64,000 nucleotides of DNA from an uncultured Ignavibacteria bacterium (GCA_964520555.1 CAZFNN010000013.1:41233-105232), one strand, 5' to 3'. Shown: positions 4,533 to 27,137, counted from the first letter of the stretch. The notes: generated from the sequence alone by a model not told the origin. Program-made: numbers and translations.

Positions 4533-5717
4533 TTAGCCCAACGGCCCTTTGCGGATCGTCCGGTAGTGCTCCGCCAACGACGCCAGAATCTTGCCGGTGT
4601 TGCTGTTGAGATTCGCGGCTTGATCCTGGACGACCGCCACGGCGACAGCCAGTATCAGGCTAAGGAGAAACGCGCTCACGACCATCACCTTCTTGCGTGG
4701 CCAGATCGCCTCCTCCGGCGGCAGCGCTCGATCCAGTACGGCGACTACGGGGACGTCTTTCTTGGACTGAATCTGCGCGATCTCCCATTGCTGGTACAGC
4801 ATCTCGTAGGTCATCTCCTGAATCTTGAGATCGCGCATCAACTCGGCATAGCGCAGCGTCAGGTCCGGAATACGGTTCAGCGGAATGTCCATCGCCGATG
4901 CGGTCGAATCGCCTGGGTCGCGTTTGCCGATTTCCAATTGCTGCAGCTTCTCGCGCAGCGCGCTGATCTTGGCACTGAGCTGCGTCAGTCCGGGATAATT
5001 TTCGTCGAACTGCCGCCGCAGCAGCTTGTACTCGATTTCGGTCATATTCAGTTCCGCCTGCTGCTGCGCGATGATATCGATCATCGCCTGCGACTGCGCG
5101 TCCAGCGAGATCGCCATGTTCTCGCGCTGGAACGCCAACAGCGCGCCCTGTGCCTTTGCCAGGGCGGTCTCCGTTTCCCGCACCCGCTGTCCGAGGAACT
5201 CACCGAAGAACTGGTTCTTCTGAATCTGGATTTCGGAATTGACTGCATTCAGTCCCGCGACCATCGTGTTGGCGAGCGCCGCCGCCAACTCCGGAGTCCG
5301 GGCCTGCGTCTGCAGTCTCACGATGCCTTCGGGGGTCACCTCCGTCGTGAAACTCTCGCGCAGCTTGCCGAGCGCCTGCAGCCGTGTATCGCTGTCGTAC
5401 TCGACCATGAGATTCAGCGAATCGACCGTGCGCAACAGGACCGTCTCCGATTCCAGGATGCTGGCATAGAGATCGGAGGGTGTCGCCATGAACGGCAACG
5501 CGAAGCTGGCGGCCGCTTGCGACAAATTGGCCCCGACGGCGCCCAGCAGTCCCGCGATCGGTGACTCCTCCTGCGGCGGCAGCATCGTGCAGACGGCCGC
5601 GTATTTGCGCGGCAGCAGCAGACTGGCGACGATCGCGATCACCGTCACGATTAAGACCGTCAGAATGATCATGCGCCGGCGTTTGACCGCGATATCAAGT
5701 ACTGATAAAATCCACAT
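4533..5717 (-). CDS. polysaccharide chain-length determinant (Wzz/GumC-like, no kinase domain)
   Basis: 394 aa. N-terminal TM followed by LLPRKYAAVCTMLPP (Wzz N-domain signature), a long coiled-coil periplasmic region, then a C-terminal TM. Confidence 0.75.
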   Translation of the reverse strand: MWILSVLDIAVKRRRMIILTVLIVTVIAIVASLLLPRKYAAVCTMLPPQEESPIAGLLGAVGANLSQAAASFALPFMATPSDLYASILESETVLLRTVDSLNLMVEYDSDTRLQALGKLRESFTTEVTPEGIVRLQTQARTPELAAALANTMVAGLNAVNSEIQIQKNQFFGEFLGQRVRETETALAKAQGALLAFQRENMAISLDAQSQAMIDIIAQQQAELNMTEIEYKLLRRQFDENYPGLTQLSAKISALREKLQQLEIGKRDPGDSTASAMDIPLNRIPDLTLRYAELMRDLKIQEMTYEMLYQQWEIAQIQSKKDVPVVAVLDRALPPEEAIWPRKKVMVVSAFLLSLILAVAVAVVQDQAANLNSNTGKILASLAEHYRTIRKGPLG

Positions 5718-5818
5718 TTTCCTTTAGTTTTCCTCCCAGAGAGAACCTATGATATCGGGTAATCGGGCGCAGGTCAACCGAATAACAACGACGTCGTACT
5801 CCCGCAGTTTCCAACGGG

Positions 5819-7000
5819 CTATCGCAGCGTCGCGTCCAGTTGACTAACCAACCGCTCCGCGATCTTCTCCCACGTCTGCTCGGCAAGAAATGCCGCATGG
5901 CGCTGCCGCAATTCCGCCGGTCGCAGCGCCAGGGCCGTCTTGATCGCCGCCTCCCACTCCTCCGGGTGGCAGGCGACGGTGCGCACCAGCTCGTCGGGAT
6001 AACTTGCCAACAAGTCATTTGGAGAGCAGACCGATGGCACGCCCGCCGCCGCCGTCTCGTAGAATTTTAGTGGATTTGAGTGATAGATGAACTCGCTGGG
6101 CAGGTAAGGGAGCAGCCCGACATCGAATCCCGCCACGATCTCCGGCACGCGGTCGCGCGCTACTTCGCCCACGTAATGCGCGTTCGCCGCTGAGCCGAGC
6201 CAACGTGCAAAGTCGTTCCCCTGTTGCCGGCCGACAAAAACCAACTGCCACGCGGGATTGCGTTCGGCCAGCGCCTTGAGCAATGGCCAATCGAGCCGCT
6301 CCGAGATCACCCCCGCATATCCCAGGCGCGGCCGGGCAATCGCCTCAATCCGCGGATCAACCTTGGGGCGGTCGCGGTCGAATCGACTCAGCACCGATTG
6401 CGACAGGCCGTTACCCGAGAGCCAGGCCTGCCGATAATGCGGCGCATATCGCTGGAGTAGGGAGGGTGTCACACACAGCAAAACATCAACGTGCTGCCGA
6501 TAACTGACTTCCAGTCTCTGACCGATGTCATCCGCCCTGTCGTCGGCAGCCGCAAGATAGTCGTACATCTCGTAAACTGTCGGCGCCCCTGGGAAAAGAC
6601 CGGTAACATAACCCTGAACCGGATGATAGTACCACACCAGCGGCGGTTCCGGCCCCAGCCCGAGCCGGCCGCGCACTCGCGCGTACCAACCCCGTAGTGC
6701 TTGAACATTGCGGCGCGTGATCCACGGATATCGCCAGGCGACGATATCGGTGAGCCAGTACTTCGGCGAAGCCAGGAACAGATTTTCCGCCAATGGTTCG
6801 AGTTTCTCCGTCTTGAAGTATTCTGTCACGCGCTGCGGCTTGCGGAAGACGGTTGAGACCGGACAAAGCGGGCGATTCACCGCGATGACCGTGAAGCCCT
6901 TTTTCCGACCGACTGCCGCCAGTGCGCGGACTTCATCCTGTCGTGTGAAGCTTGACCAATCGGTCTTGTTGAAAATCAGAAAAACCCGAGGCAGCGGCAT
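5819..7000 (-). CDS. glycosyltransferase (GT-B, family 1/4-like)
   Basis: 393 aa. The C-terminal half (YLPSEFIYHSNPLKFYETAAAGVPSV) resembles the nucleotide-sugar binding region of GT1/GT4 enzymes. Sits in a cluster with the Wzz/Wzy-like genes. Confidence 0.6.
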   Translation of the reverse strand: MPLPRVFLIFNKTDWSSFTRQDEVRALAAVGRKKGFTVIAVNRPLCPVSTVFRKPQRVTEYFKTEKLEPLAENLFLASPKYWLTDIVAWRYPWITRRNVQALRGWYARVRGRLGLGPEPPLVWYYHPVQGYVTGLFPGAPTVYEMYDYLAAADDRADDIGQRLEVSYRQHVDVLLCVTPSLLQRYAPHYRQAWLSGNGLSQSVLSRFDRDRPKVDPRIEAIARPRLGYAGVISERLDWPLLKALAERNPAWQLVFVGRQQGNDFARWLGSAANAHYVGEVARDRVPEIVAGFDVGLLPYLPSEFIYHSNPLKFYETAAAGVPSVCSPNDLLASYPDELVRTVACHPEEWEAAIKTALALRPAELRQRHAAFLAEQTWEKIAERLVSQLDATLR

Positions 7001-7719: not shown

Positions 7720-10047
7720 ATGTTCAGTCGAATCGCCGTTCCCGCAATTGCGGCCATAGTCCTCGCGTGCTGTGTGCCGGCTAATGCCGCCTATGAACGC
7801 GACCTGGCCGAATTGGCCGACAGCCTCCGCCACCTGGCGCCCGATCCGGCCGCCACAGCCGGCATCAGCAACATCAAGCTTGTTCGCGGGGGCATTAGCT
7901 TCACTCTGGAGTCCGGAACGCTCGCACTGGCCAGTCCCGTTGCCGGCCGCCGTCTCGGGGCAGTCTTCACCGGCTCTGCCCATGTCAGCTTCGCACCCCC
8001 CAATCGCGCCGAACGCTACATGTTTCAGCGCCATTGCTCCGACTCGGTCGCGAATTGGGAAGTCAACGAAATCGGCTTCGTCTTCACCGACAGCACGATT
8101 GTCGAGTTAGCCGCCGCCGTTGGTGCGGCCACACCGGCTACGCTGACCAAGGGCTCGGGGCAGCTGGCCGCCCTGATCGATTACGTTGAAGACGACCTCG
8201 ATATTTCTTTCGCCGCCTTCCTCCTGACCAATCTGTTCCAGTCGGCGCGGCCGGGACGATTCCTCGCCCGCTTCCCGACCCCCTGCGGCAGCGGACTGAT
8301 CATCGTCGATCCCAATGAAGTCGAGGAAGTCCAATTCATCCGCCAGAGTCGCACTGGACAGGGAGCCTATCCCGAAATCGTTTCCAGCTTCCACCTGCCG
8401 GAGCAGTACGAAGGCCACCGCTGGGGTCCCGACCGCGAAAACAAAGACGAAATCGACAGCCTCGACTATCGCATCGACTGCAAAATCTGGCAGTCCGCTA
8501 AGTGCGATCTGATCGTTGACCTTGCCTTCACCGCCACCGTCGATTCGCTCCGCGTGCTCAGCTTCACCCTCTTCGATGATTTAATGCAGGAGACCATCCG
8601 CGTCTCCGACTCGCGCGGTGATTCGCTCTACTGGCTCAAGCTGAAGGATGAATACGGCATCACCGTCGCGCTGCAGAAACCGCTGCTGCGCGGCGAACGC
8701 GAAACTTTGCGCTTCACTTATTCCTCCAAGGGCATGCTCGCTAAGACACCGTGGGGCAATAATGTGCTGGTCTCGGCCACGACCTGGTATCCGCGCTACG
8801 GCTATCTCAAACGCGCCCACCATCGCCTCAAGTTCGCCGTGCCCAATCAGTACGAGTTTGTCGGCGTCGGCCGCAAGGTCAACGAAGCTGTCGACGGTGA
8901 TTTCAAGATCTCCGAATGGGACTGCTCCGACTACCCAGTCGCTTTCGTCTCCTACAATTACGGCATCTTCGAGATCGACACTTCGTCGTTCGTCTCGACT
9001 ACCGGCCCGATCCCGCTGGCGGTCTATCGCAGCAAGTCGCATCGCGCTTCCACCAAGGACATGATGGAGAGCGTGCTGGCCGATGTCGCCGCCTCCGGTA
9101 CGCTGTACTCTTTGGAAGTGCATCCGTACCCCTTCGCTTCGCTGGCCGTCACCGAAATTCAGTCGGGACACGGACAAGGCCTGCCCGGCTTGCTCCATCT
9201 TGCTTACAGCACCTTCGATCAGACCTCGCCCTTCGCCTTCGACGATGCCTTCCGCGCCCATGAAGTCGCCCACCAGTGGTGGGGACACCTGGTCGGCTGG
9301 AAGACCTACCACGACCAATGGCTCTCGGAAGCCTTCGCCGAGTATTTCAGCGCCTGGTACATCCAGCGCAAGTATCTTAATGATAAGGAACATCGCGGCC
9401 GCTTTTTCGATCTGCTCGATCAGTGGCGCGACGACGTCTTTCAGTCCGGTTCCTACACCCAGGGCGGCTGGCAGACGGCTTATCAAGAGGGCAATAATGC
9501 CGGCCCGATCTGGATGGGTCAACGCCTGCAATCCTCGAATTCGTCCGACTATGCCACCCTTGTCTACAGCAAAGGCGCCTACGTGCTCTACATGCTGCGG
9601 ATGATGATGTTCGATTTCGTCAAACGCGATGACAGCAACTTCCGCGCGCTGCTCGGCGACTTCCTCAAAGAATATCAGTGGCGCGAAGCCACCACCGCCG
9701 ACTTCCAACGCGTCGCTGAGGAACATTTCGGCAAGCGGCTCGATTGGTTTTTCGATCAGTGGGTCTACGGCGTCGAACTGCCCGAATATGAATGGCGTGC
9801 TGCCGTCCGCGAGCAACCCGACGGCAAGTTCGCGGTCGATGTCTCCGTCACTACGAACGGTGTCAGCGACGGGTTCCGTATGTTGATCCCGTTTACGATC
9901 CTGATGGCCGGTGAATATCACACCACCACGCGGCTCGATATTGATCAGCTCCGGCAGACCGTGACCATCTCCAACCTGCCCTACAAGCCGGAGAAGTTCG
10001 TTTTCAACAGCTTCAAATCGGTGCTCTGCAAAGAGAAGCAGAAGTAG
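7720..10047 (+). CDS. M1-family zinc metallopeptidase (aminopeptidase N-like), secreted
   Basis: 775 aa with a signal peptide. Gluzincin motif HEVAHQWWGH followed 18 residues later by E (WLSEAFAEY). Confidence 0.85.
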   Translation: MFSRIAVPAIAAIVLACCVPANAAYERDLAELADSLRHLAPDPAATAGISNIKLVRGGISFTLESGTLALASPVAGRRLGAVFTGSAHVSFAPPNRAERYMFQRHCSDSVANWEVNEIGFVFTDSTIVELAAAVGAATPATLTKGSGQLAALIDYVEDDLDISFAAFLLTNLFQSARPGRFLARFPTPCGSGLIIVDPNEVEEVQFIRQSRTGQGAYPEIVSSFHLPEQYEGHRWGPDRENKDEIDSLDYRIDCKIWQSAKCDLIVDLAFTATVDSLRVLSFTLFDDLMQETIRVSDSRGDSLYWLKLKDEYGITVALQKPLLRGERETLRFTYSSKGMLAKTPWGNNVLVSATTWYPRYGYLKRAHHRLKFAVPNQYEFVGVGRKVNEAVDGDFKISEWDCSDYPVAFVSYNYGIFEIDTSSFVSTTGPIPLAVYRSKSHRASTKDMMESVLADVAASGTLYSLEVHPYPFASLAVTEIQSGHGQGLPGLLHLAYSTFDQTSPFAFDDAFRAHEVAHQWWGHLVGWKTYHDQWLSEAFAEYFSAWYIQRKYLNDKEHRGRFFDLLDQWRDDVFQSGSYTQGGWQTAYQEGNNAGPIWMGQRLQSSNSSDYATLVYSKGAYVLYMLRMMMFDFVKRDDSNFRALLGDFLKEYQWREATTADFQRVAEEHFGKRLDWFFDQWVYGVELPEYEWRAAVREQPDGKFAVDVSVTTNGVSDGFRMLIPFTILMAGEYHTTTRLDIDQLRQTVTISNLPYKPEKFVFNSFKSVLCKEKQK

Positions 10048-10059
10048 CTTCGTCCGTCG

Positions 10060-10710
10060 CTACTTCAAGAGGAGCATCCGTCGCGTTGCGCTCCATTCAC
10101 CGGCTGTGATCGTGTAGAAGTAGACGCCCGACGGCAACGACTTACCGCCGATTGCAGTTGCGGTCCAGTTGACCTCGTAGCTTCCGGCCGGCAACTCGCC
10201 CAGCTCCTGACTCTCAACCGTCTGTCCCAGCAAATTGACGACGGCGAATCGCACCACCGCCGACCTTTCCAGCGAAAACCGGATCGTGGTGCTGGGATTG
10301 AACGGATTGGGGAAGTTTTGCTCGAGCGCCAACGCGCGCGGCAGGGGGTCCGTGCTCTCCACTTGCACCCCCAGACTCTGCACGAAGATCGTGCCCTTCA
10401 TCGCAGGGTGGAAATCGCAGTGAAAGGGAAACGGCCCATTGCCGTCCGCGGGCTTGATCTCGACGTCAAACGGTACCCCCGCGGCGAGGATGCCGGAATC
10501 CCAACCTTTGGGCGAACCGGCGTCGCTCGTGGACGTGTGCGTTCCGGCAGAGCGCATGAAGCGCACTGTGTCGCCGTGACTGACCGTGGTGTTGACCGGA
10601 TTGAAAAAATTGTTGCCGACACTGACGGTGTGAATCGTCGCGCTCGCCATCGGCGCCAGTGCCAGTGCACCAAGAGCGGCTGCAGCCAGAATGCGTGTTC
10701 TCCGTGGCAT
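10060..10710 (-). CDS. blue-copper cupredoxin (amicyanin-like loop) with T9SS C-terminal sorting domain
   Basis: Start at ATG 10710, preceded by AGGAGG. Signal peptide AALGALALAPMASA. Candidate Cu ligands are H in AGTHTS and C, H, M in FHCDFHPAMKG. The C-terminus FPNPFNPSTTIRFSL...GVYFYTITAG...MLLLK is a typical T9SS/FlgD-Ig-like tail. Confidence 0.75.
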   Translation of the reverse strand: MPRRTRILAAAALGALALAPMASATIHTVSVGNNFFNPVNTTVSHGDTVRFMRSAGTHTSTSDAGSPKGWDSGILAAGVPFDVEIKPADGNGPFPFHCDFHPAMKGTIFVQSLGVQVESTDPLPRALALEQNFPNPFNPSTTIRFSLERSAVVRFAVVNLLGQTVESQELGELPAGSYEVNWTATAIGGKSLPSGVYFYTITAGEWSATRRMLLLK

Positions 10711-16553: not shown

Positions 16554-16628
16554 GAACTTTCGTACAATATTGCGATTATCATAGATGAATCACAGACTAT
16601 CACCGCGGATTTGGAAAGGTATCAGCCA

Positions 16629-17615
16629 ATGTACAGAAGCGTAGTCGCCTGCATCACTCTCGCTCTCCTTATCTTTTCCAGTGCCCTGGTCGGCGGCCAG
16701 AGCAAGGTCGGCACCACCGCCTATCCGTTCCTGAAAATCGGCGTCGGCGCCAAGGCGCTGGCCATGGGCGGGGCGTTCGTCGGCCTGGCCAATGACGAAT
16801 CCGCGCTCTATTACAATCCCGCCGGTTTGGTCGGCCTGACCACCCGCAGCGTCTCGGCATCCTACATGAATTACATCGCCGACATCCAGTCGGGCAACCT
16901 GATGCTGGTGATCCCGCGCGGAGTCGAGCCTACCGATGAATACCTTGAAGAAGAGAACCCGATCAGCGATGCCCGCTCCACCTTTGCCTTTGGCCTGACT
17001 TATCTCAACTACGGCGACATCGACGAAACCAACGCTTCCGGCCAGGTCATCGACCAGTTCGGCGGCTCTGATATGGCGTTCACCTTCGCTTACTCCGCCA
17101 AGGCCAATCGCCAGCTCGCGGTCGGCGCCGCCGTCAAGTTCATTTATCAGAAGATCGATGAATATGACTCGCAGGGACTCGCCACCGATATCGGGCTGCT
17201 CTATCGCCTCAAGGACGGCCGCACCAATATTGGCTTCTCTGCTTCGAATCTCGGATTCCAGCTCTCCGGATTGTCCGAGAACCACAAAGACCCGCTGCCG
17301 ATTCTGATCCGTGCCGGCCTCTCACATCAACTGCGCGAAATCCCGCTGACGGTCTCTGGCGAAGGCGTCCTGCCGTCTGACAATGACATTTATGGCTCGC
17401 TCGGCGTGGAATATCACCCCGATCTGCCGCTGGCCTTTCGCGCCGGCTACAGTTCCTTCGGTTCGAACTACAAAACCGATGGCGACAAGGATGGCACTGC
17501 CGGTTTGTCGTTCGGCGCCGGCTTCAAGCTCCCCAAGCTAAACGTCGACTACGCTTACTTGCCATATGCCGACCTCGGCTCGCTGCACCGCGTCAACTTG
17601 GCGTACCAATGGTAG
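16629..17615 (+). CDS. PorV/PorQ-family-like outer-membrane beta-barrel protein
   Basis: Signal peptide followed by GTTAYPFLKIGVGAKALAMGGAFVGLANDESALYYNPAGL, which matches the N-terminal signature of PorV/PorQ-type T9SS OMPs. Ends in an aromatic residue (YQW). Confidence 0.55.
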   Translation: MYRSVVACITLALLIFSSALVGGQSKVGTTAYPFLKIGVGAKALAMGGAFVGLANDESALYYNPAGLVGLTTRSVSASYMNYIADIQSGNLMLVIPRGVEPTDEYLEEENPISDARSTFAFGLTYLNYGDIDETNASGQVIDQFGGSDMAFTFAYSAKANRQLAVGAAVKFIYQKIDEYDSQGLATDIGLLYRLKDGRTNIGFSASNLGFQLSGLSENHKDPLPILIRAGLSHQLREIPLTVSGEGVLPSDNDIYGSLGVEYHPDLPLAFRAGYSSFGSNYKTDGDKDGTAGLSFGAGFKLPKLNVDYAYLPYADLGSLHRVNLAYQW

Positions 17616-18061
17616 CGCCCCGTGTGGTCAGAGGCGGGATTATTGGGCTCTGCCTGATACTCGCGGCCGCCATCGCCGCCTGCTCGCCGCCGACCCAGTC
17701 GCCTCGTGAGCGCGTCCTCGAATTCGTCCGTCTCATCCAGGCTGACTCGCTGCCCGATATCATGCCGTACATCGATCTCGATTCGGTTGCCACCTATGAG
17801 TACGCCGATGCAAAATACGATTCGTTGCCTCTGCCGCAGAAGAAGCAGCGCCTGCTGGCCGGGTTCACCGGCAGCGGCGAGATTCGTGCCAATTGGGCTC
17901 GCGCCCAGATCGTCGTCAACGAGGAGCAGTTCCTCGACGACACCAGCGCCTCCGTCGAGGTCTCCTTCATCGACCGCTCCACGCGTATCCAATACTACTC
18001 TCAGTTTCTCATGAAGAAACGAGTCGCCAATTGGATCATCACCGATTTTCAAATCAACTGA
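17609..18061 (+). CDS. lipoprotein, function unknown
   Basis: 150 aa with lipobox AIAAC. Overlaps the preceding stop by 7 nt. Confidence 0.5.
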   Translation: MVAPRVVRGGIIGLCLILAAAIAACSPPTQSPRERVLEFVRLIQADSLPDIMPYIDLDSVATYEYADAKYDSLPLPQKKQRLLAGFTGSGEIRANWARAQIVVNEEQFLDDTSASVEVSFIDRSTRIQYYSQFLMKKRVANWIITDFQIN

Positions 18062-18111
18062 CGGCCCGTTCTGGAAAACTCCCGGCGCGCAAATCCCTCG
18101 TCTTGGCAGTG

Positions 18112-18492
18112 ATGATCATGACGTTCCTTAGCTTCGTCTTTGGTTGCGGCAATCAGGACGGCAGCCGAATCAAACAGGTGACCGTCACCCAGCTTCGCGC
18201 CGAGTTGGAACGCGATTCGACTTTGGCTTTAATTGATGTGCGGACCCCCGAAGAATATAACCAGGTCCGCGTGCCGCACATCAAGGCGCGCATCGACTAC
18301 GCCGCCATTGCCGCCAAGATTGATACCATCCAATTCCCCAAAGATCGGCCGGTCTACCTCATCTGCCGTACCGGCCGACGCAGCCTGATTGCCGCCAAGG
18401 AGCTTCTCGACCTGGGTTACCAATCCCCCATCAATGTCGCTGGCGGTACCGTGGCCTGGGATCAGGCTGGCTACCCGCTGATTAAACGCTGA
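18112..18492 (+). CDS. rhodanese-domain lipoprotein (sulfurtransferase-like)
   Basis: 126 aa from ATG 18112. Lipobox FVFGC and rhodanese active-site loop LICRTGRRS. Confidence 0.8.
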   Translation: MIMTFLSFVFGCGNQDGSRIKQVTVTQLRAELERDSTLALIDVRTPEEYNQVRVPHIKARIDYAAIAAKIDTIQFPKDRPVYLICRTGRRSLIAAKELLDLGYQSPINVAGGTVAWDQAGYPLIKR

Positions 18493-18681
18493 AGCCCCCT
18501 TCAACGTCGAGAAATTGGTCGGGAAAGCGTCGCAATCTCGCGCGACGATGCTTGCCTCGAAGTTTCTGCAACGCACCCCGTTAGCGCGGCAAAAAATCCC
18601 TTGCTTTTCCCAGACCGGTTTTGTAAAGTCGGGTCTGTTATTTTCTTGGATAGAAGCGCTGCGCTTTCGTCATTGGAGGAG

Positions 18682-19731
18682 ATGATGTCGGTTGGGAAGT
18701 CGGTTAGCCTCGTTTTAGGCATTTGTTTCCTGTGTATATTCTTAGCGGGCTGCGAAGGGGATACTGGGCCGATCGGCCCGCCCGGGTTTACAGGTATAGA
18801 TGGTCCTCCCGGGAGCGATTTCGTTCCCGATCCGATTGCGGACCAGGTTTTCGGATTGATGGTTGTCAATGCGGTCGGCACCGACATGAATGGCGCCGCC
18901 AAGATCACCGTCACGTCCAACGAAGCTGCCACTCCCAGCGCTACCCAGGTCGTGGCGGCATTGATGGAGACCGCGCCGGTGATCGACGGTCGCACCAGTT
19001 CGGCGAATGAGTGGGCGCTGATCCCCCTTTCGTCCGTGCAGTTGACCAATCTGTTCGGCGCCGACAACGGTATTACCGCCGCCGACGTCCAGATGGGCTA
19101 CGATCGCACCAACATTTACATGCGCATCCACTGGACGGAAGTGGAGAGCGGTGCGTTACTTGCCGCTGCCGATACCACCTGGAAAATGTGGACCTTTGAC
19201 GGCTCGCAGTGGTCGCAGGGCAACGGCGATGACAAGCTCTTCCTCGTTTGGGAGAACTCACCGATTACCGGCTGGGACGCCGATGGCCTGACGACCATCT
19301 TTAACGGTACCACCTTCAAGACCCCGGCCGCCGGCGAGCAGGCCGATCTCTGGATGTGGTCCGGCACGCGCACCAACTATGCCGGAGTCTTCGCCGACAA
19401 GAACGTCGTTTATTCAGCAACCGACGGCGAGCGCGATGATTTCGGAATTCAGTACTACATCGAAAACACGCCGCAAGGCGGTCTTCCGGCCTACATGAAG
19501 ACGCATTCGCCCAAGGTTGGCTCAACCTATCCGCTTTGGGCTTTCGAATACGGACCGTTCGTGAACACGATTGACTGGGAAACCGGCGCCACGATTCCGG
19601 GTGTCATCACCCTCCAACCGTCGGTTTCGGCAGCGGATGTGCGGGCGGCGGCAGTGTTTGTCAACGGCGCCTGGACCGTCGAACTCCGGCGCGCCCGTAA
19701 CACCGGCCATCACGATGACGTCGTGTTGTAG
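18682..19731 (+). CDS. lipoprotein with collagen-like GXY stalk and EB_dh/DOMON-like domain (paralog 1)
   Basis: ATG 18682 follows GGAGGA. Lipobox LAGC. Seven Gly-X-Y triplets (GDTGPIGPPGFTGIDGPPGSD). Domain motifs APVIDG..EW, ADLWMWSGTRTN and GAWTVELRRARNTGHHDDV. Confidence 0.7.
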   Translation: MMSVGKSVSLVLGICFLCIFLAGCEGDTGPIGPPGFTGIDGPPGSDFVPDPIADQVFGLMVVNAVGTDMNGAAKITVTSNEAATPSATQVVAALMETAPVIDGRTSSANEWALIPLSSVQLTNLFGADNGITAADVQMGYDRTNIYMRIHWTEVESGALLAAADTTWKMWTFDGSQWSQGNGDDKLFLVWENSPITGWDADGLTTIFNGTTFKTPAAGEQADLWMWSGTRTNYAGVFADKNVVYSATDGERDDFGIQYYIENTPQGGLPAYMKTHSPKVGSTYPLWAFEYGPFVNTIDWETGATIPGVITLQPSVSAADVRAAAVFVNGAWTVELRRARNTGHHDDVVL

Positions 19732-19791
19732 GGATGGGAGGAACGATCATGGCCAAGCTGATTTTCCAGGTGATGAATGTGGGAGGAATTG

Positions 19792-21066
19792 ATGCGCAAG
19801 TTTAAGATAGGAGTCGTCCTCGCAATCCTCTTCACGGGATTGGTCTATCTCGTCGGCTGCGACGGCGACGAAGGTCCGGTCGGCCCGAAAGGGCTCAAGG
19901 GCCGCAAAGGTGACTCCGGTGCGGATACTGAAGTCGGCCAGCCGAGCGCGCGCTACTTCGGCATCGGTGTGACCAATTCGCACCGCTATGCCGTCAATGG
20001 CGATATCAGCGTATTCGTCACTTTCGACTCCACGGTGCGCGCCAACCGCGATACCGTGGTGGCCGGATACCTCGCGACACCGCCGCTGATCGATGGTAAC
20101 GATGGCGAGGAAATTGAATGGGGTCCGCAGAAGTCCCGCCTGCGCCTCGCGGCCCTCAATACGGCCTCCGGCTACAAGGACAATGAAATCTACGAAGTGG
20201 TTTGCCGCGCCGCCTGGGACGAGAACTTCATCTACACGTTCTTCCAGTGGAAAGAACGCCAGGTGACCGTTCGCGTCACCGGCGGTGATTCCACCGTCTT
20301 TGACGCCGGCGCTTCCGATCAACCGCATCAGCTCTACTTCGATGCCCAATCCAAACGCGTCGACCACATCGACGGCGAGGATACCACGTTCTTCGAGTGG
20401 ATTCGGAAAGAAGTTCTCGGTGTCGCCGAAGTCTGTGATACGGTTCCCATTCCATTTCCTCCATTCATAATCATCTCGTGCCGCCAAGACACGCTTTTCG
20501 GCGATACCAACTTTGTCTGGCTGCAGCAGCCCATTGATGAAGACAAGCTGGCGATGTTCTGGTGCGATGAGGAATTCGATGGCTGGTCACAGTTTGCGTT
20601 CCAGGAGTACTTCGGCGTTCCGGGCAACGCGACCGGTTCCAACGACGCCTTGATCGACGCCTGGGTCTGGGGCTCGGGCACGACCAACCCAGTGAACACG
20701 GCCGACGACTGGTACTTGATCAGCAGCGGCTTTGAGCCGGATGCCGGCGCGCCGCCCTTTATCGACAATTTCGTCGTTCCCGATTCCGTGCCGCTTTATC
20801 AGAGCTTCCGCGATCCGAACTATAAATCGACCGCGAACCTGCTGATTCAAATCTATCCGTTCTGGTACTTTGATGCGGTCGGATACGCCTACAACGGCTG
20901 GGATATCTATCGGGCAGTCTATGTTCCCGGAGTTGTGACGACGCTTCCGTCCGACTCGCGCGCCGACGTCTATGCGCGCGCTATCTTCGACGGCGGTACT
21001 GGTGTCTGGACTGTAGAGATGCGCCGTGCGCGCAACACCTACAGCGGCGATGATGTGAAGTTCTGA
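19792..21066 (+). CDS. lipoprotein with collagen-like GXY stalk and EB_dh/DOMON-like domain (paralog 2)
   Basis: ATG 19792 follows GGGAGGA. Lipobox LVGC. Seven GXY triplets (GDEGPVGPKGLKGRKGDSGAD). Motifs PPLIDG..EW, IDAWVWGSGTTN and GVWTVEMRRARNTYSGDDV. Confidence 0.7.
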   Translation: MRKFKIGVVLAILFTGLVYLVGCDGDEGPVGPKGLKGRKGDSGADTEVGQPSARYFGIGVTNSHRYAVNGDISVFVTFDSTVRANRDTVVAGYLATPPLIDGNDGEEIEWGPQKSRLRLAALNTASGYKDNEIYEVVCRAAWDENFIYTFFQWKERQVTVRVTGGDSTVFDAGASDQPHQLYFDAQSKRVDHIDGEDTTFFEWIRKEVLGVAEVCDTVPIPFPPFIIISCRQDTLFGDTNFVWLQQPIDEDKLAMFWCDEEFDGWSQFAFQEYFGVPGNATGSNDALIDAWVWGSGTTNPVNTADDWYLISSGFEPDAGAPPFIDNFVVPDSVPLYQSFRDPNYKSTANLLIQIYPFWYFDAVGYAYNGWDIYRAVYVPGVVTTLPSDSRADVYARAIFDGGTGVWTVEMRRARNTYSGDDVKF

Positions 21067-21073
21067 GGAGGAG

Positions 21074-22189
21074 ATGACGATGATGAATGCATACTTCAAG
21101 ATATCGCTTCTGGCGGGATTGACGGTTCTGTTGCTGCTGGCGCTGACGGGTTGCGACGGCGTTTCCGGTCCGCGTGGGCCGGTTGGTGATCAGGGTGACC
21201 CGGGCGACAACTATGTTCCACCGGTGCCGGCCAACCGCTTCTTCTCTCTGGCCATTACTAACAACAGTCAGCGCAGCCACAATGGTGCGCCCAAACTGTA
21301 CCTCGCCTTTGACGGCCTCCATCAGGCCGCCGGTGACACGGTGGTCTCCCAGCGGCTTGCCGCCGGTCAGACTCCGGCGATCGATGGTGTCGACAATGGC
21401 ACCGCCGAATGGGGCGATAAGGTGACCAACGTGACACTTTATCGTGCCGCCGGTGACTTCAACTTCATCGAAGGCGCGCAGGTGCGTTCCGCTTACGACA
21501 ATGAGTTCGTCTACTTCCAGGTGAAGTGGACGGAAGTTGCCAACGCCACCTACGGCCTTGAAGTCTCGCGCAGCGACAATCCGAATCCCTGGGTCTATCC
21601 CGCTGCCGGTACCGGCGACAACGTCGGACGGTGGGACAAGGGAACATCGAATGAGGATCGTCTCAACCTGTTCTTCGAAATCACGCCCGTGACCCGGTAT
21701 GCCAGCGACGGCTGCTACGTCACCTGCCATACCACGAATATGAACGAGACAAACTATCACGCGACCCGCGGCCCGCGCGAGCGCATGGATATCTGGCATT
21801 GGACCGCCGGTACGACCAATCACACCGGCTACGGCTACGACCGCTATCTTGACGCCTCCCTGATCGGTGTCAAGCCCGACATCGGCACGCCGGTGGTGCG
21901 GTCAAACCGCGAATTTATCGCGGCCGGCGCCGATACCACCGATCGTCCGCTTTACATGGCGCTTGGCGATCCCAACAGCAATTCCGGTTATCCCCTCTGG
22001 GATTTTGCCATCACCGGCGTCGCCAATGAAGGCTGGACTCCCGGCGCTACCATTCCGGCCTTCGTCAACAGTATCCCGACCCTGAGTTCGGCGGATCTGA
22101 TCGCCGTCGGCCAGTACGACAACGGCACCTGGACGGTCGAGCTGAAGCGCAAACGCGTTACCGGCAACGGCGACGACGCTACATTCTAA
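21074..22189 (+). CDS. lipoprotein with collagen-like GXY stalk and EB_dh/DOMON-like domain (paralog 3, carries CX3CH)
   Basis: Starts 7 nt after paralog 2. Lipobox LTGC. Six GXY triplets (GVSGPRGPVGDQGDPGDN). Motifs PAIDG..EW, CYVTCH, MDIWHWTAGTTN and GTWTVELKRKRVTGNGDDA. Confidence 0.7.
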   Translation: MTMMNAYFKISLLAGLTVLLLLALTGCDGVSGPRGPVGDQGDPGDNYVPPVPANRFFSLAITNNSQRSHNGAPKLYLAFDGLHQAAGDTVVSQRLAAGQTPAIDGVDNGTAEWGDKVTNVTLYRAAGDFNFIEGAQVRSAYDNEFVYFQVKWTEVANATYGLEVSRSDNPNPWVYPAAGTGDNVGRWDKGTSNEDRLNLFFEITPVTRYASDGCYVTCHTTNMNETNYHATRGPRERMDIWHWTAGTTNHTGYGYDRYLDASLIGVKPDIGTPVVRSNREFIAAGADTTDRPLYMALGDPNSNSGYPLWDFAITGVANEGWTPGATIPAFVNSIPTLSSADLIAVGQYDNGTWTVELKRKRVTGNGDDATF

Positions 22190-22220
22190 GCGCCGCGCTT
22201 ATTCATAATTCGTATCTTCT

Positions 22221-22256
22221 GGGTCGACGGCTTCTCGCTGTCGACCCGTTCATTTG
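22221..22256 (+). terminator. possible terminator after the paralog triplet
   Basis: GGGTCGAC (22221-22228) pairs with GTCGACCC (22240-22247). Followed by GTTCATTTG, a weak U-tract. Confidence 0.35.
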
Positions 22257-24770: not shown

Positions 24771-27137
24771 ATGCCACAGGTACTTCGTATCCTGCTCGGC
24801 GTATTTGTCTTAGTCGGATTGTTTCTGGGGAATCCTCAAGTTGGCAATGCGTCCCCGGAAGTCGGCGCCGACGCGGCAGCCTCAAAAATCATCATGGACG
24901 ACTTGTACACTTACGGGCAATTCGGCACCGGCATTGGTACCGGCGAAATCGTCTGCGGCGACTTCGATCATGATGGAGACAACGAGGTCCTCTGCAACGC
25001 AATCTCGTATGCCGGAAATTACTGGTACATTTTCGAATATCACAGCGCGAGCAACAACTACGAGATCAATCGACTTGGACCGGTGTATTCCGAGCGCATC
25101 GTTCATCTCGTTGTGCGCGCCGGCGTTTTCGGTGAAGGCGATTTGATCTATGTCGGTCTGGAGAACGGCGAGGTCATCGTGTACGATGCCGTGACGCTCC
25201 GCGAGATCGATCGCCTGATCACCCCTTCTTATGGACTCTCGCGAATGGCGATTGGAGACGCCGACAACGACGGCAGCGACGAGTTGGTAGTCACCAGCAG
25301 CTTTTACGGCTATCCGAGCTCTGCATACACATTCGTGTATGATCTGATCTCGCTCGATCTCGAGTTGCAGATTGAATACGGTGGCTCTGACCTCGCGATC
25401 GCCAATGTCGATGTCGATGCCGACAATGAACTTGTGCTCAGTTCCGGCTTCGTGCTGCAAGTCAATGGCGATGACTTCGCAGTCGAGTGGGAGTATGCCC
25501 CAGGCTTCGGTGATCAGATCGGTCTGGCCGATATCGATGAAGACGATCAGGCGGAGATCGTTGGACGCGCCGGTTGGTACTACATAACCAGCTACGACGT
25601 CGACCTCCAGTCTCCCGTGTGGCAGATCGCCGCGTATCTCGATGTAGCTGACATCCAATTGTACGATGTTGAGGGCGACGGCCAGATCGATTTGCTTGTT
25701 GGCGACGGCCAGTGGGGGAGCATTCATTGCTTCGAGACGCTGGATCCCAATCACGACGGTGTCGTGACGGAGAAGTGGAGCGTGGCTAACCCTGAACACG
25801 GTGTTACGGATGTCGGTGTCGGCGACAGCGATAATGACGGTGAATTGGAATTACTTTGGGGGGCGGGTTACTCTTCGTCAGGACCTGACTACCTGTTTGT
25901 CCACGACTTGCCTTCGCTCGCCTTCCAATGGAAGAGCCAACCCATTGAAGGTCCCTTTCGGCAAATTGCCGCTGGGGACCTGAACGACGACGGGCTCGAA
26001 GAGCTGGTGCTCCTTCCGGGAGAATTCAACTATGTCACTAACGGTGGGGAATTTCTCGTCTACTATCCAGCTACTCAAACGCTTGTGCCGCAATTGCTAT
26101 CACAGCCGGTGGTAGCCTGTCGGATAGCCAACGCTGACGATGACCCGGAGAGCGAATTGCTGCTCACAATGGGCGGATGGTCGGGTCCGACGGTACGGAT
26201 ATTGGACGGGACAAACTTTGCTATGGACCGGGAGATCCAGTTCACCTCGTTCAACGGCATCGCCGTGGGAAATCTGATCGCTTTGGACGCCGGAGATGTC
26301 GATGCTGACGGTGTGCTTGAACTGGTAGCAACCGACCGGAGCTACTTGTACCAGATCGACCTGCCTTCCGGCAGTATCGAGTGGCGGAGCATCCACCTGT
26401 CGGGATACGGTGACGTCGAGTTATACGTAACCCAGTTTGATGACGATCCAGCCCGGGAAATCGTGCTCCTGGCAAACTCGCTCTACGTAGTCGACGGCGC
26501 CTCTCATCAAATGTGGCAGTCCGCATTCTCCGAGTACAAGCTGATGGATTTGACGGATGTCGACGGCGACGATCGCCCCGAGATCGCGGTGATTGAGACG
26601 CCCGGGACAATCACGGCGATCGACGGCGCGACCCATCTTGTGGATTGGAGTGACAGCGGCTTTCCAACCACCTCACACACCCTCAAGTTCTTTGACTTTG
26701 ATCTCGATGGCCTGAGCGATGTCTTGCTCGATGTCTCCGGCAGGCTCCAGATCTGGAACAACACCGCACAATTACTCATGTGGGAATCCGAGCAGTTGGC
26801 AACGAATCTTTCCGTCTTTCAAGGCGTCGCGGTCGGCGACTTCGACAGCGACGGGCTCCCTGATGTCGGCGCCGCGATCAATCATCGATTTGATCACTTT
26901 GAAGTAACAGCGATCGTCCCCTTGAACTGCGGTGATGCCGATGGCGATGGGATCATCGCGATTGGCGACATTGTGTATCTGATCAACTTCCTGTACGTAG
27001 CCGGTGCTGCGCCCCTCGATCCCACGGGTTCGGACGTGAACTGCGACGGCCGCTTGAATCTGACTGACGCCGTCTACCTAGTCAATTTCATATTCAGCGT
27101 CGGCAACACACCCTGCAGTAATTGCCCATCGCCGTAG
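24771..27137 (+). CDS. secreted FG-GAP/VCBS-repeat protein with dockerin-like C-terminal module
   Basis: 788 aa with a signal peptide. Repeated DxDxDGxxE motifs (GDADNDGSDELV, GDSDNDGELELL, GDLNDDGLEELV, GDFDSDGLPDV). Last about 70 aa: CGDADGDGIIAIGDIVYLINFLY...DVNCDGRLNLTDAVYLVNFIF. Confidence 0.8.
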   Translation: MPQVLRILLGVFVLVGLFLGNPQVGNASPEVGADAAASKIIMDDLYTYGQFGTGIGTGEIVCGDFDHDGDNEVLCNAISYAGNYWYIFEYHSASNNYEINRLGPVYSERIVHLVVRAGVFGEGDLIYVGLENGEVIVYDAVTLREIDRLITPSYGLSRMAIGDADNDGSDELVVTSSFYGYPSSAYTFVYDLISLDLELQIEYGGSDLAIANVDVDADNELVLSSGFVLQVNGDDFAVEWEYAPGFGDQIGLADIDEDDQAEIVGRAGWYYITSYDVDLQSPVWQIAAYLDVADIQLYDVEGDGQIDLLVGDGQWGSIHCFETLDPNHDGVVTEKWSVANPEHGVTDVGVGDSDNDGELELLWGAGYSSSGPDYLFVHDLPSLAFQWKSQPIEGPFRQIAAGDLNDDGLEELVLLPGEFNYVTNGGEFLVYYPATQTLVPQLLSQPVVACRIANADDDPESELLLTMGGWSGPTVRILDGTNFAMDREIQFTSFNGIAVGNLIALDAGDVDADGVLELVATDRSYLYQIDLPSGSIEWRSIHLSGYGDVELYVTQFDDDPAREIVLLANSLYVVDGASHQMWQSAFSEYKLMDLTDVDGDDRPEIAVIETPGTITAIDGATHLVDWSDSGFPTTSHTLKFFDFDLDGLSDVLLDVSGRLQIWNNTAQLLMWESEQLATNLSVFQGVAVGDFDSDGLPDVGAAINHRFDHFEVTAIVPLNCGDADGDGIIAIGDIVYLINFLYVAGAAPLDPTGSDVNCDGRLNLTDAVYLVNFIFSVGNTPCSNCPSP

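Follow-up and report, generated by a model that had tools for sequence, protein, structure and literature searches.

The window analysed here, 64 kb of DNA titled as coming from an uncultured Ignavibacteria bacterium, carries three tandem plus-strand genes, designated A, B and C, that encode predicted lipoproteins with short collagen-like stalks and heads of the EB_dh family. Gene A (18682..19731) encodes a protein of 349 residues with seven Gly-X-Y triplets, gene B (19792..21066) one of 424 residues, likewise with seven, and gene C (21074..22189) one of 371 residues with six. The heads of A and B lack a haem motif, whereas the head of C contains a Cys-x-x-x-Cys-His (CX3CH) sequence. The open reading frames (ORFs) begin at 18601 or 18682 for A, 19777 or 19792 for B and 21074 for C, and the starts that we favour for the first two are the ATG at 18682 and that at 19792; each favoured ATG is preceded, 4-7 nucleotides upstream, by a Shine-Dalgarno sequence of the GGAGGA type (GGAGGAG for A, GGGAGGA for B and GGAGGAG for C). 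The intergenic gaps are 60 nucleotides between A and B and 7 nucleotides between B and C, and a terminator-like hairpin with a 12-bp stem including eight G-C pairs lies 3' of the stop codon of C (22220..22248, plus strand), identified by a consensus scan only in a region where the number of such sites is not above shuffle expectation. With this operon-like layout, A, B and C constitute one operon of three old paralogues.

All three proteins share the same domain order: a signal peptide, the lipobox Cys, a stalk of six or seven triplets, a Pro-rich linker of about 10 residues, and a beta-sandwich head of about 300 residues with the EB_dh fold. The lipoboxes LAGC (A), LVGC (B) and LTGC (C) follow a basic n-region and a hydrophobic core, agree with the bacterial lipoprotein pattern [LVI][ASTVI][GAS]C, and predict lipidation of all three chains; in A, the signal peptide as read from the sequence spans 18682..18753 on the plus strand and ends in L-A-G-C at Cys24. 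The Gly-Cys pair of the lipobox is retained across homologues. Pairwise identity among A, B and C is 33-34%, and the invariant columns of their alignment are P.IDG..EW, D...Y..W.E, D.W.W..TN and G.WTVE..R.R.T...DD. B-type proteins additionally have an insertion of about 50 residues (window 20359-20508, B residues ~190-239) that is absent from A and C, and in the window protein this insertion holds two Cys (…EVCDTVPIPFPPFIIISCRQD…). A preliminary description of this DNA, made from the sequence alone, had recorded the three paralogues, their gaps, lipoboxes, +2 residues and 7/7/6 stalk coordinates exactly as we found them on re-reading, and the head landmarks that it had singled out are conserved as invariant columns. 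It had also cited Asp at +2 as the inner-membrane retention signal of E. coli, with the caveat that the rule might not apply to these proteins. The +2 residue is Glu in A and Asp in B and C, yet across homologues it is mostly Glu, with Thr, Gln and Ser also found in A. Thus, Asp at +2 is not conserved, and an E. coli-type inner-membrane retention signal is not readable from this position.

Collagen-like stalks and the loci that carry them

The stalk of A, (Gly-X-Y)7, is encoded at 18757..18819 on the plus strand and reads GDT GPI GPP GFT GID GPP GSD. The stalk of B, also (Gly-X-Y)7, lies at 19864..19926 on the same strand (GDE GPV GPK GLK GRK GDS GAD), as does the (Gly-X-Y)6 stalk of C at 21158..21211 (GVS GPR GPV GDQ GDP GDN). 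In a six-frame translation these are the sole runs of at least five Gly-X-Y triplets in the window, where about 0.02 runs of at least six are expected by chance from the Gly frequency; the three runs are far beyond chance. The Gly-X-Y phase extends back to the lipobox Gly at -1, and thus the mature Cys, which would be lipidated, sits at an X position. Across 121 distinct stalks (36 of A, 29 of B and 56 of C), the stalk Gly is invariant and there are no insertions or deletions, although the entropy at X and Y positions reaches about 3 bits and each stalk Gly position draws on all four Gly codons. Invariant Gly amid variable X and Y residues indicates purifying selection on the Gly periodicity and on stalk length, which argues strongly against a mere flexible tether.

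Charge is segregated among the three stalks, with basic residues concentrated in B and acidic residues in A and C. Stalks of A have about three acidic residues and almost no basic ones (mean 0.19), and the X position of triplet 4 is hydrophobic (F/L/Y). Stalks of B have a mean of 2.9 Lys/Arg, mainly at the Y positions of triplets 3-5. Triplet 2 of the C stalks has an invariant Arg at Y, and triplets 4-6 often have Asp at X. The Pfam Collagen model (PF01391) scores A, B and C at 16.0, 17.1 and 13.6 bits, below its gathering threshold of 27.2 bits, because the runs are too short; relatives with longer stalks exceed the threshold (P0098, 27.8 bits; P0126, 37.9 bits; P0209, 32.8 bits). The stalks also give weak matches to the Lcl, Scl and Collagen models of NCBIfam and Pfam, with no family cut-off reached. 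In monomer models predicted by AF2, the stalk is a coil with a predicted local distance difference test (pLDDT) of about 58-83.

To find homologues, the full-length paralogues were used as queries and yielded 20 proteins, and a repeat with the stalk trimmed yielded 66; genomes were scanned with C-type sequences, taking one genome per GTDB species. Twenty distinct three-gene loci were obtained. Their records bear the names Zixibacteria or Zixiibacteriota, some instead "uncultured Ignavibacteria bacterium", and one ENA contig is labelled Zixibacteria_JADJGC01. The order A-B-C and the triplet counts 7/7/6 are found in 20 of the 20 loci, and no exception to these counts occurs among about 85 homologous proteins, so the expectation that run lengths and triplet organisation would be conserved in relatives held at every related locus found. 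The presence and spacing of A, B and C are likewise kept in the loci examined, orthologues of gene A are about 348 residues long in the 20 loci, and C-type heads diverge to about 42% identity with the window protein. In a neighbour-joining tree, A, B and C each form a clade with 100% bootstrap support, and thus the three-gene state is old. As for the taxon labels, several of the metagenome-assembled genomes (MAGs) L011-L013, L016, L017, L019, L021 and L022 bear the title "uncultured Ignavibacteria bacterium" and encode C proteins 52-72% identical, and gene calls give the triplet with full synteny in three Ignavibacteria-titled records (the L001, L005 and L006 contigs). Zixibacteria or Zixiibacteriota is the title given to close relatives, and the labels look inconsistent; here the genome of the window and the 20 loci are counted as Zixibacteria.

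The genes around the triplet are also conserved. Upstream lie an MFS transporter, a HutI-like amidohydrolase, LptE, an outer membrane barrel of about 330 residues, a lipoprotein of about 148 residues and, sometimes, a rhodanese lipoprotein; downstream of A-B-C lie GNAT and then YifB. In the window, the barrel has 334 residues (16611-17615) with weak PorV and FadL/TodX matches below the gathering score, and is followed by a lipoprotein of 150 residues (17609-18061) without a Pfam match. In every locus checked, whether with three stalk genes or with two, the barrel and the ~148-residue lipoprotein separate LptE from the stalk genes. A rhodanese-domain lipoprotein (…FVFGCGNQ…; 17893-18492) is directly upstream of gene A in the window. 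It was considered as a part of the system and rejected: it occurs in most close loci, but it is absent from L008 and L009, and the corresponding slot of the two-gene loci holds no rhodanese-sized ORF, so it is not a core part. Further along the window, 24771-27137 encodes a secreted protein of 788 residues with beta-propeller repeats of the FG-GAP/VCBS type and a C-terminal type I dockerin, a domain that is unusual outside cellulosome-producing bacteria.

Beyond the three-gene loci, a metagenome scan with P0104 alone gave no match, and a scan with alignment A8 revealed sister lineages with a GC content of 47-53%. Their loci have the orthologous neighbourhood, with YifB 70-72% and the amidohydrolase 55-58% identical and with LptE, the barrel and the 148-residue lipoprotein present, and they contain exactly two stalk genes, one without the haem motif followed by one with CX3CH. 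The two stalks have 7/7 triplets in L040 (6001-8256) and L043 (3364-4876), 8/7 in L041 (5980-8198), and 7/6 in L046 (6004-8175) and L047 (1367-3538). Single-gene loci have 4, 11, 15, 16 or 17 triplets, and singleton representatives have up to 22. Paralogue sets therefore stay within one triplet of each other even though their heads are only ~30% identical, whereas singletons drift widely.

Collagen and EB_dh lipoproteins also occur as single genes in other phyla. At L029, in a MAG of Candidatus Neomarinimicrobiota (JAZFSI010000137.1), one stalked EB_dh lipoprotein with 11 triplets and the motif CDAFCH (5458-6624) has as neighbours a cupredoxin-domain protein, a histidine kinase of the PAS/HAMP type accompanied by two response regulators, and a cytochrome c protein of 325 residues; among the gene contexts seen for the family, this one is the most clearly redox-related. 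At L038 (ENA ERZ24794640 NODE_1891; listed at 8001-10624 and 17060-17506), the lipoprotein P0230 combines 16 triplets, an EB_dh domain with CX3CH, and cytochrome c. The next gene, whose start overlaps the stop of P0230, encodes a protein with Lysyl_oxidase (PF01186) and TSP_3 domains, and genes for a 2-oxoglutarate-Fe(II) oxygenase (PF13640, 2OG-FeII_Oxy_3) and a MopE copper-binding protein are found less than 8 kb away. The adjacency of a bacterial lysyl oxidase and a collagen-stalked cytochrome hints at cross-linking or modification of the stalk. Some relatives (P0096, P0084, P0088 and P0112) have two to four tandem EB_dh domains per chain, each with CX3CH, and extra domains are present in P0096 (C-terminal sorting domain of the type IX secretion system, T9SS), P0084 (PKD) and P0088 (an inserted cytochrome c and a dockerin). 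Judging from these architectures, the family is often extracellular and multi-copy, and the T9SS sorting, dockerin and PKD domains make surface exposure possible.

Fold of the heads and the haem motif of C

The heads of A, B and C score 53.3, 41.8 and 74.6 bits with Pfam EB_dh (PF09459), above the gathering cut-off of 33.3, and they are the only EB_dh ORFs within the window. Structure models cover the B and C heads only. The AF2 model of C has a pLDDT of 92.1 and a predicted template modelling score of 0.84; that of B has a pLDDT of 82.8, with residues 190-239 below 50. Foldseek places NxrC (7b04_C) and EbdC (2ivf_C) as the top PDB matches of both models with probability 1.00 (1.3e-5 and 1.8e-4 for C; 6.5e-5 for NxrC and then EbdC for B), followed by CBM9 modules at much weaker scores. 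A search of the PDB with a single sequence retrieved only a collagen peptide, and with six sequences NxrC at E=0.017; a profile of 51 sequences from the wider family matched NxrC at 9e-20, CBM9 (1i82_A) at 2.2e-6 and EbdC at 8e-6. The Pfam scores and the Foldseek and profile matches together establish membership of the EB_dh/DOMON-like fold.

The likeness to this family had been proposed in the preliminary description with ethylbenzene dehydrogenase gamma in mind, and it is the fold that stands, with the role of gamma subunit falling away. No NCBIfam model matches A, B or C, and DMSO_red_II_gam in particular gives no match. No genes for a molybdenum bis(pyranopterin guanine dinucleotide) (Mo-bisPGD) alpha subunit or an iron-sulfur (FeS) beta subunit are present within ~5-10 kb in loci L001, L002, L005, L006, L008, L009 and L010 or among the scanned neighbours in the window, as judged by Pfam on called genes with flanks bounded by contig ends in some loci. 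Thus, A, B and C are not gamma subunits of a dimethyl sulfoxide (DMSO)-reductase-type enzyme; we rejected the assignment to type II of these enzymes, with the gamma subunits EbdC, NxrC, DdhC and SerC, both on the missing Mo and FeS partner genes and because the Met/Lys ligation of EbdC is not kept as such. EbdC and NxrC hold haem b between Met and Lys (Met155/Lys305 in NxrC), and in place of this pair C has the approximate equivalent His229, the strand from His69 to Lys74, and the CX3CH motif, while A and B have none of these.

The motif of C, Cys214-Tyr-Val-Thr-Cys218-His219, is encoded at 21713..21730 on the plus strand and is a candidate site for covalent attachment of haem c; among the three proteins, the Cys-Xn-Cys-His pattern of c-type cytochromes occurs in C only. 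On the same strand, His229 within N-Y-H-A-T (21758..21760) is a candidate axial ligand, and His69-Asn-Gly-Ala-Pro-Lys74 (21278..21295) a candidate distal haem contact. Cys214-x-x-x-Cys218-His219 is invariant in all C-type proteins, as are His229, in the context N-[YF]-H-A-T, and His69-Asn-Gly-Ala in the first beta strand; the following Pro-Lys74 is 80-95% conserved. Among 51 diverse family members, Cys218 and His219 are invariant and Cys214 is at least 90% conserved. An exhaustive profile search recovered 1,521 cluster representatives at E <= 0.001, and in the best 150 of these CX3CH is present nearly once per EB_dh domain (156 motifs); in the same 150, 78 of 143 family domains have Met, and 10 have His, at the position 10 residues before the conserved D-x-W. 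In HMMER alignments, the position equivalent to His229 falls within two residues of EbdC Met108 and NxrC Met155, and the strand of C from His69 to Lys74, which is N-terminal, is matched to the C-terminal NxrC strand bearing the haem ligand Lys305; the ligand alignment of C to EbdC and NxrC is precise only to about two residues. Some family members are fusions, either of Collagen, EB_dh and class I cytochrome c (P0126, P0129, P0164 and P0230) or of EB_dh with an inserted cytochrome c (P0088), and NCBI names some relatives "c-type cytochrome".

A and B have a common deletion of seven residues spanning Cys218-His219. The first Cys is absent too, Phe or Asn replaces His229, and His69 and Lys74 are not conserved. 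Three haem-binding heads had been envisaged at first, but only C keeps CX3CH and the two His, and thus one head rather than three is likely to be the haem carrier. From this pattern of conservation, we infer a c-type haem protein of the CX3CH kind in C and regard A and B as derivatives without haem.

A possible three-chain assembly and its alternatives

How might the three chains work together? The reading that we tentatively favour, and that we regard as close to but just short of evenly balanced, is that A, B and C form a collagen-like heterotrimer whose heads, one with a c-type haem and two without, are held ~5-6 nm off the membrane and serve extracytoplasmic electron transfer. Each mature chain would start at its lipidated Cys and run directly into the collagen-like segment, and A, B and C, one copy of each, would zip into a single triple helix, nucleated by the C-terminal heads and closing from the heads towards the membrane, where three lipid anchors would pin the N-terminal end. 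Collagen geometry has a rise of 0.286 nm per residue, and so 18-21 residues would give a semi-rigid stalk of ~5-6 nm. Haem would be carried on head C only, covalently through Cys214 and Cys218, with His219 as the proximal ligand; the opposite face would be taken by His229 or by the His69/Lys74 strand. A and B, having presumably lost the haem site, would act as heads for scaffolding, assembly specificity or partner docking. The complex would then be a membrane-tethered electron-transfer station with a single haem at fixed height, in the periplasm or at the cell surface, and C would pass electrons between the membrane and periplasmic or surface partners.

Indirect support for co-assembly comes from the strict co-occurrence of the three genes, their matched stalk lengths, the segregated charges and the contrast between two-gene and three-gene loci. 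Loci with one, two and three genes fit homotrimers, 2:1 trimers and 1:1:1 trimers, respectively; two-gene sister lineages may thus form 2:1 trimers, and long-stalked single-gene relatives may form homotrimers. An extended version of the proposal, in which chain-specific charges set the register of a natural prokaryotic ABC heterotrimer, a minimal lipid-anchored stalk in the manner of C1q with one haem head and two degenerate ones, and in which this state evolved, at the conserved locus of Zixibacteria and related lineages, through one-gene homotrimers and two-gene 2:1 trimers, is plausible but held with somewhat less assurance. We scored lateral and axial (Y-to-X') charge pairs with a rough geometry of our own, applied to related sequences: the best ABC register reaches 4.4, compared with -0.8 for A3, 0.05 for B3 and 2.2 for C3, and shuffling of triplets gives 2.36 +/- 0.45, with 0 of 500 shuffles reaching the observed value. 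As support for a heterotrimer, this score is weak.

Several observations weigh against this picture. In several genomes the B homotrimer equals or exceeds ABC in charge-pair score. A triple helix of 6-7 triplets without hydroxyproline would be marginal by itself and depends on the proposed nucleation by the heads, and we know of no EB_dh heads that trimerise. Multi-copy relatives more often have two copies than three, and the deeper nodes of the neighbour-joining tree all have bootstrap support of 14% or less, too low to trace the step from two genes to three or a descent of A and B from the haem-less gene of the two-gene lineages. With respect to the haem, the CX3CH spacing in C is non-canonical compared with CXXCH, attachment is read from conservation alone, and C has more candidate ligands (three or four) than axial positions (two). 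The window contains no multi-CXXCH ORF, and the neighbours in it (LptE, the outer membrane barrel, GNAT and YifB) provide no redox context. Finally, conservation of stalk length could equally be explained by a height required of three separate homotrimers.

This last alternative, in which A3, B3 and C3 have different jobs and equal lengths reflect a common height above the membrane, draws on precedent: the characterised bacterial collagen-like proteins known to us are all homotrimers, and any trimer formed by the stalked relatives with a single gene would have to be a homo-oligomer. B and C homotrimers also score well for charge pairs in several genomes. An A3 helix, however, would have a net charge of about -8 with no compensating pairs, in line with its zero or negative score, and separate homotrimers leave unexplained why A, B and C strictly co-occur in fixed order in every locus and why loci with two or three genes keep their lengths within one triplet when singletons range from 4 to 22. 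We consider separate homotrimers unlikely. It is rather more improbable that there is no triple helix and that the Gly-X-Y segment is an extended or flexible, polyproline-II-like spacer on monomers. A disordered tether downstream of the lipidated Cys is common in lipoproteins, 6-7 triplets are short, and both the Pfam Collagen scores of 13.6-17.1 bits and the coil of the AF2 monomers would suit such a spacer. Yet a spacer needs no Gly at every third residue, and the 121 distinct stalks include neither a Gly substitution nor an indel; the in-phase lipobox Gly and the relatives with 11-22 triplets that pass the Collagen threshold (P0098, P0126 and P0209) also speak for a collagen-like segment.

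A further possibility leaves the stalk as it is and questions the function. The heads, at least those of A and B, may bind a carbohydrate or envelope ligand in the manner of CBM9, and the stalked complex may be structural, adhesive, or part of an outer membrane module with LptE, the barrel and the 148-residue lipoprotein. A and B lack the haem motif, CBM9 is the next match by fold and by profile (1i82_A, 2.2e-6), the synteny of these envelope genes with the stalk genes holds even in two-gene lineages, and surface exposure is indicated by the T9SS sorting, dockerin or PKD domains of relatives. This synteny may be plain backbone conservation, however, as YifB and the amidohydrolase are kept too, and a non-redox role sits poorly with the strong constraint on the invariant CX3CH and two His of C and with the repeated fusion of the family to cytochrome c domains. 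Of the alternatives considered, we give this one the least credence.

The A/B/C triplet is a new arrangement built from known parts, conserved across the Zixibacteria loci found and with relatives in several other phyla. If the three chains share one helix, they would form, to our knowledge, the first natural heterotrimeric bacterial collagen, with stalks that would rank with the shortest found in natural collagens. In collagen chemistry, it is difficult to design ABC assemblies of a specific register, and under the heterotrimer reading at least 20 natural sets of 18-21 residues per chain would provide a compact rule book for register, as well as an expressible heterotrimer model that needs no hydroxylation. 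The same reading would imply a new way to place a single haem at a fixed distance from the membrane. For annotation, many proteins labelled "ethylbenzene dehydrogenase-related" are stand-alone proteins with a CX3CH haem motif, or haem-less derivatives of such proteins, rather than subunits of molybdoenzymes that oxidise hydrocarbons or nitrite.

Comparison with known systems

EbdC and NxrC, the latter from the nitrite oxidoreductase of Kuenenia, belong to the same Pfam family as the heads of A, B and C, have the same beta-sandwich fold, and share with them the D/N-x-W-[HY]-W-K strand and the W-T-V..R...TG..D end motif. They are extracytoplasmic haem proteins, as C is by prediction. In contrast to EbdC and NxrC, which have Mo-bisPGD alpha and FeS beta partners, A, B and C come from loci without such genes nearby, are lipoproteins with a collagen-like stalk, and have heads ~100-170 residues larger. 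Their haem sites also differ, with haem b ligated by Met and Lys in EbdC and NxrC, CX3CH and His in C, and loss of the site in A and B; the strand of the Lys ligand is C-terminal in NxrC and N-terminal in C.

In organisation, the triplet resembles C1q, which likewise has three paralogous, clustered chains with N-terminal Gly-X-Y and a C-terminal globular head, and a C1q-like 1:1:1 assembly with the heads at one end of the helix is proposed here by analogy only. The likeness is purely organisational: the C1q head (gC1q) is a jelly roll like that of tumour necrosis factor, whereas the heads of A, B and C have the EB_dh fold. The stalks of C1q are hydroxylated and several times as long, and its trimers bundle in sixes. 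A, B and C, by comparison, are bacterial, lipid-anchored, and limited to 6-7 triplets. The bacterial proteins Scl1/Scl2, BclA, Lcl and Bucl8 also have prokaryotic Gly-X-Y repeats without hydroxyproline and an adjoining globular domain. Their repeats run to tens of triplets, and they form homotrimers that serve as adhesins on the surface or as fibres on spores. A, B and C differ from them in having three different chains, only 6-7 triplets, an N-terminal lipid anchor and heads of a haem type.

The nearest relatives of C in architecture are the uncharacterised single-gene Collagen-EB_dh(-cytochrome c) lipoproteins of other phyla, for which we found no published function in the literature searched. 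P0098, P0126, P0129, P0209, P0230 and the L029 protein have, like C, a lipobox, Gly-X-Y right after the Cys, and EB_dh with CX3CH. Unlike C, each is the product of a lone gene, has 11-22 triplets and lacks haem-less partners, and an additional cytochrome c domain at the C terminus is frequent. The architecture had been thought undescribed, and indeed the literature searched, on DOMON or EB_dh domains together with collagen, lipoproteins, CX3CH or Zixibacteria, contained nothing on it; it is nevertheless not unique to the triplet, given these single collagen and EB_dh lipoproteins.

Anchored cytochromes of the PgcA and cytochrome c_y type rely on flexible linkers of a single chain, rich in Pro-Thr or Ala/Pro, and their folds are class I or multihaem. 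The spacer proposed for A, B and C is instead collagen-like, presumably rigid and three-stranded, and the head is a DOMON-like beta sandwich. Despite these differences, the favoured functional model for A, B and C is a c-type haem anchored on a repetitive spacer for extracytoplasmic electron transfer, as in cytochrome c_y and in Geobacter PgcA, a tethered lipoprotein cytochrome described as "hemes on a string" (PMC10570954).

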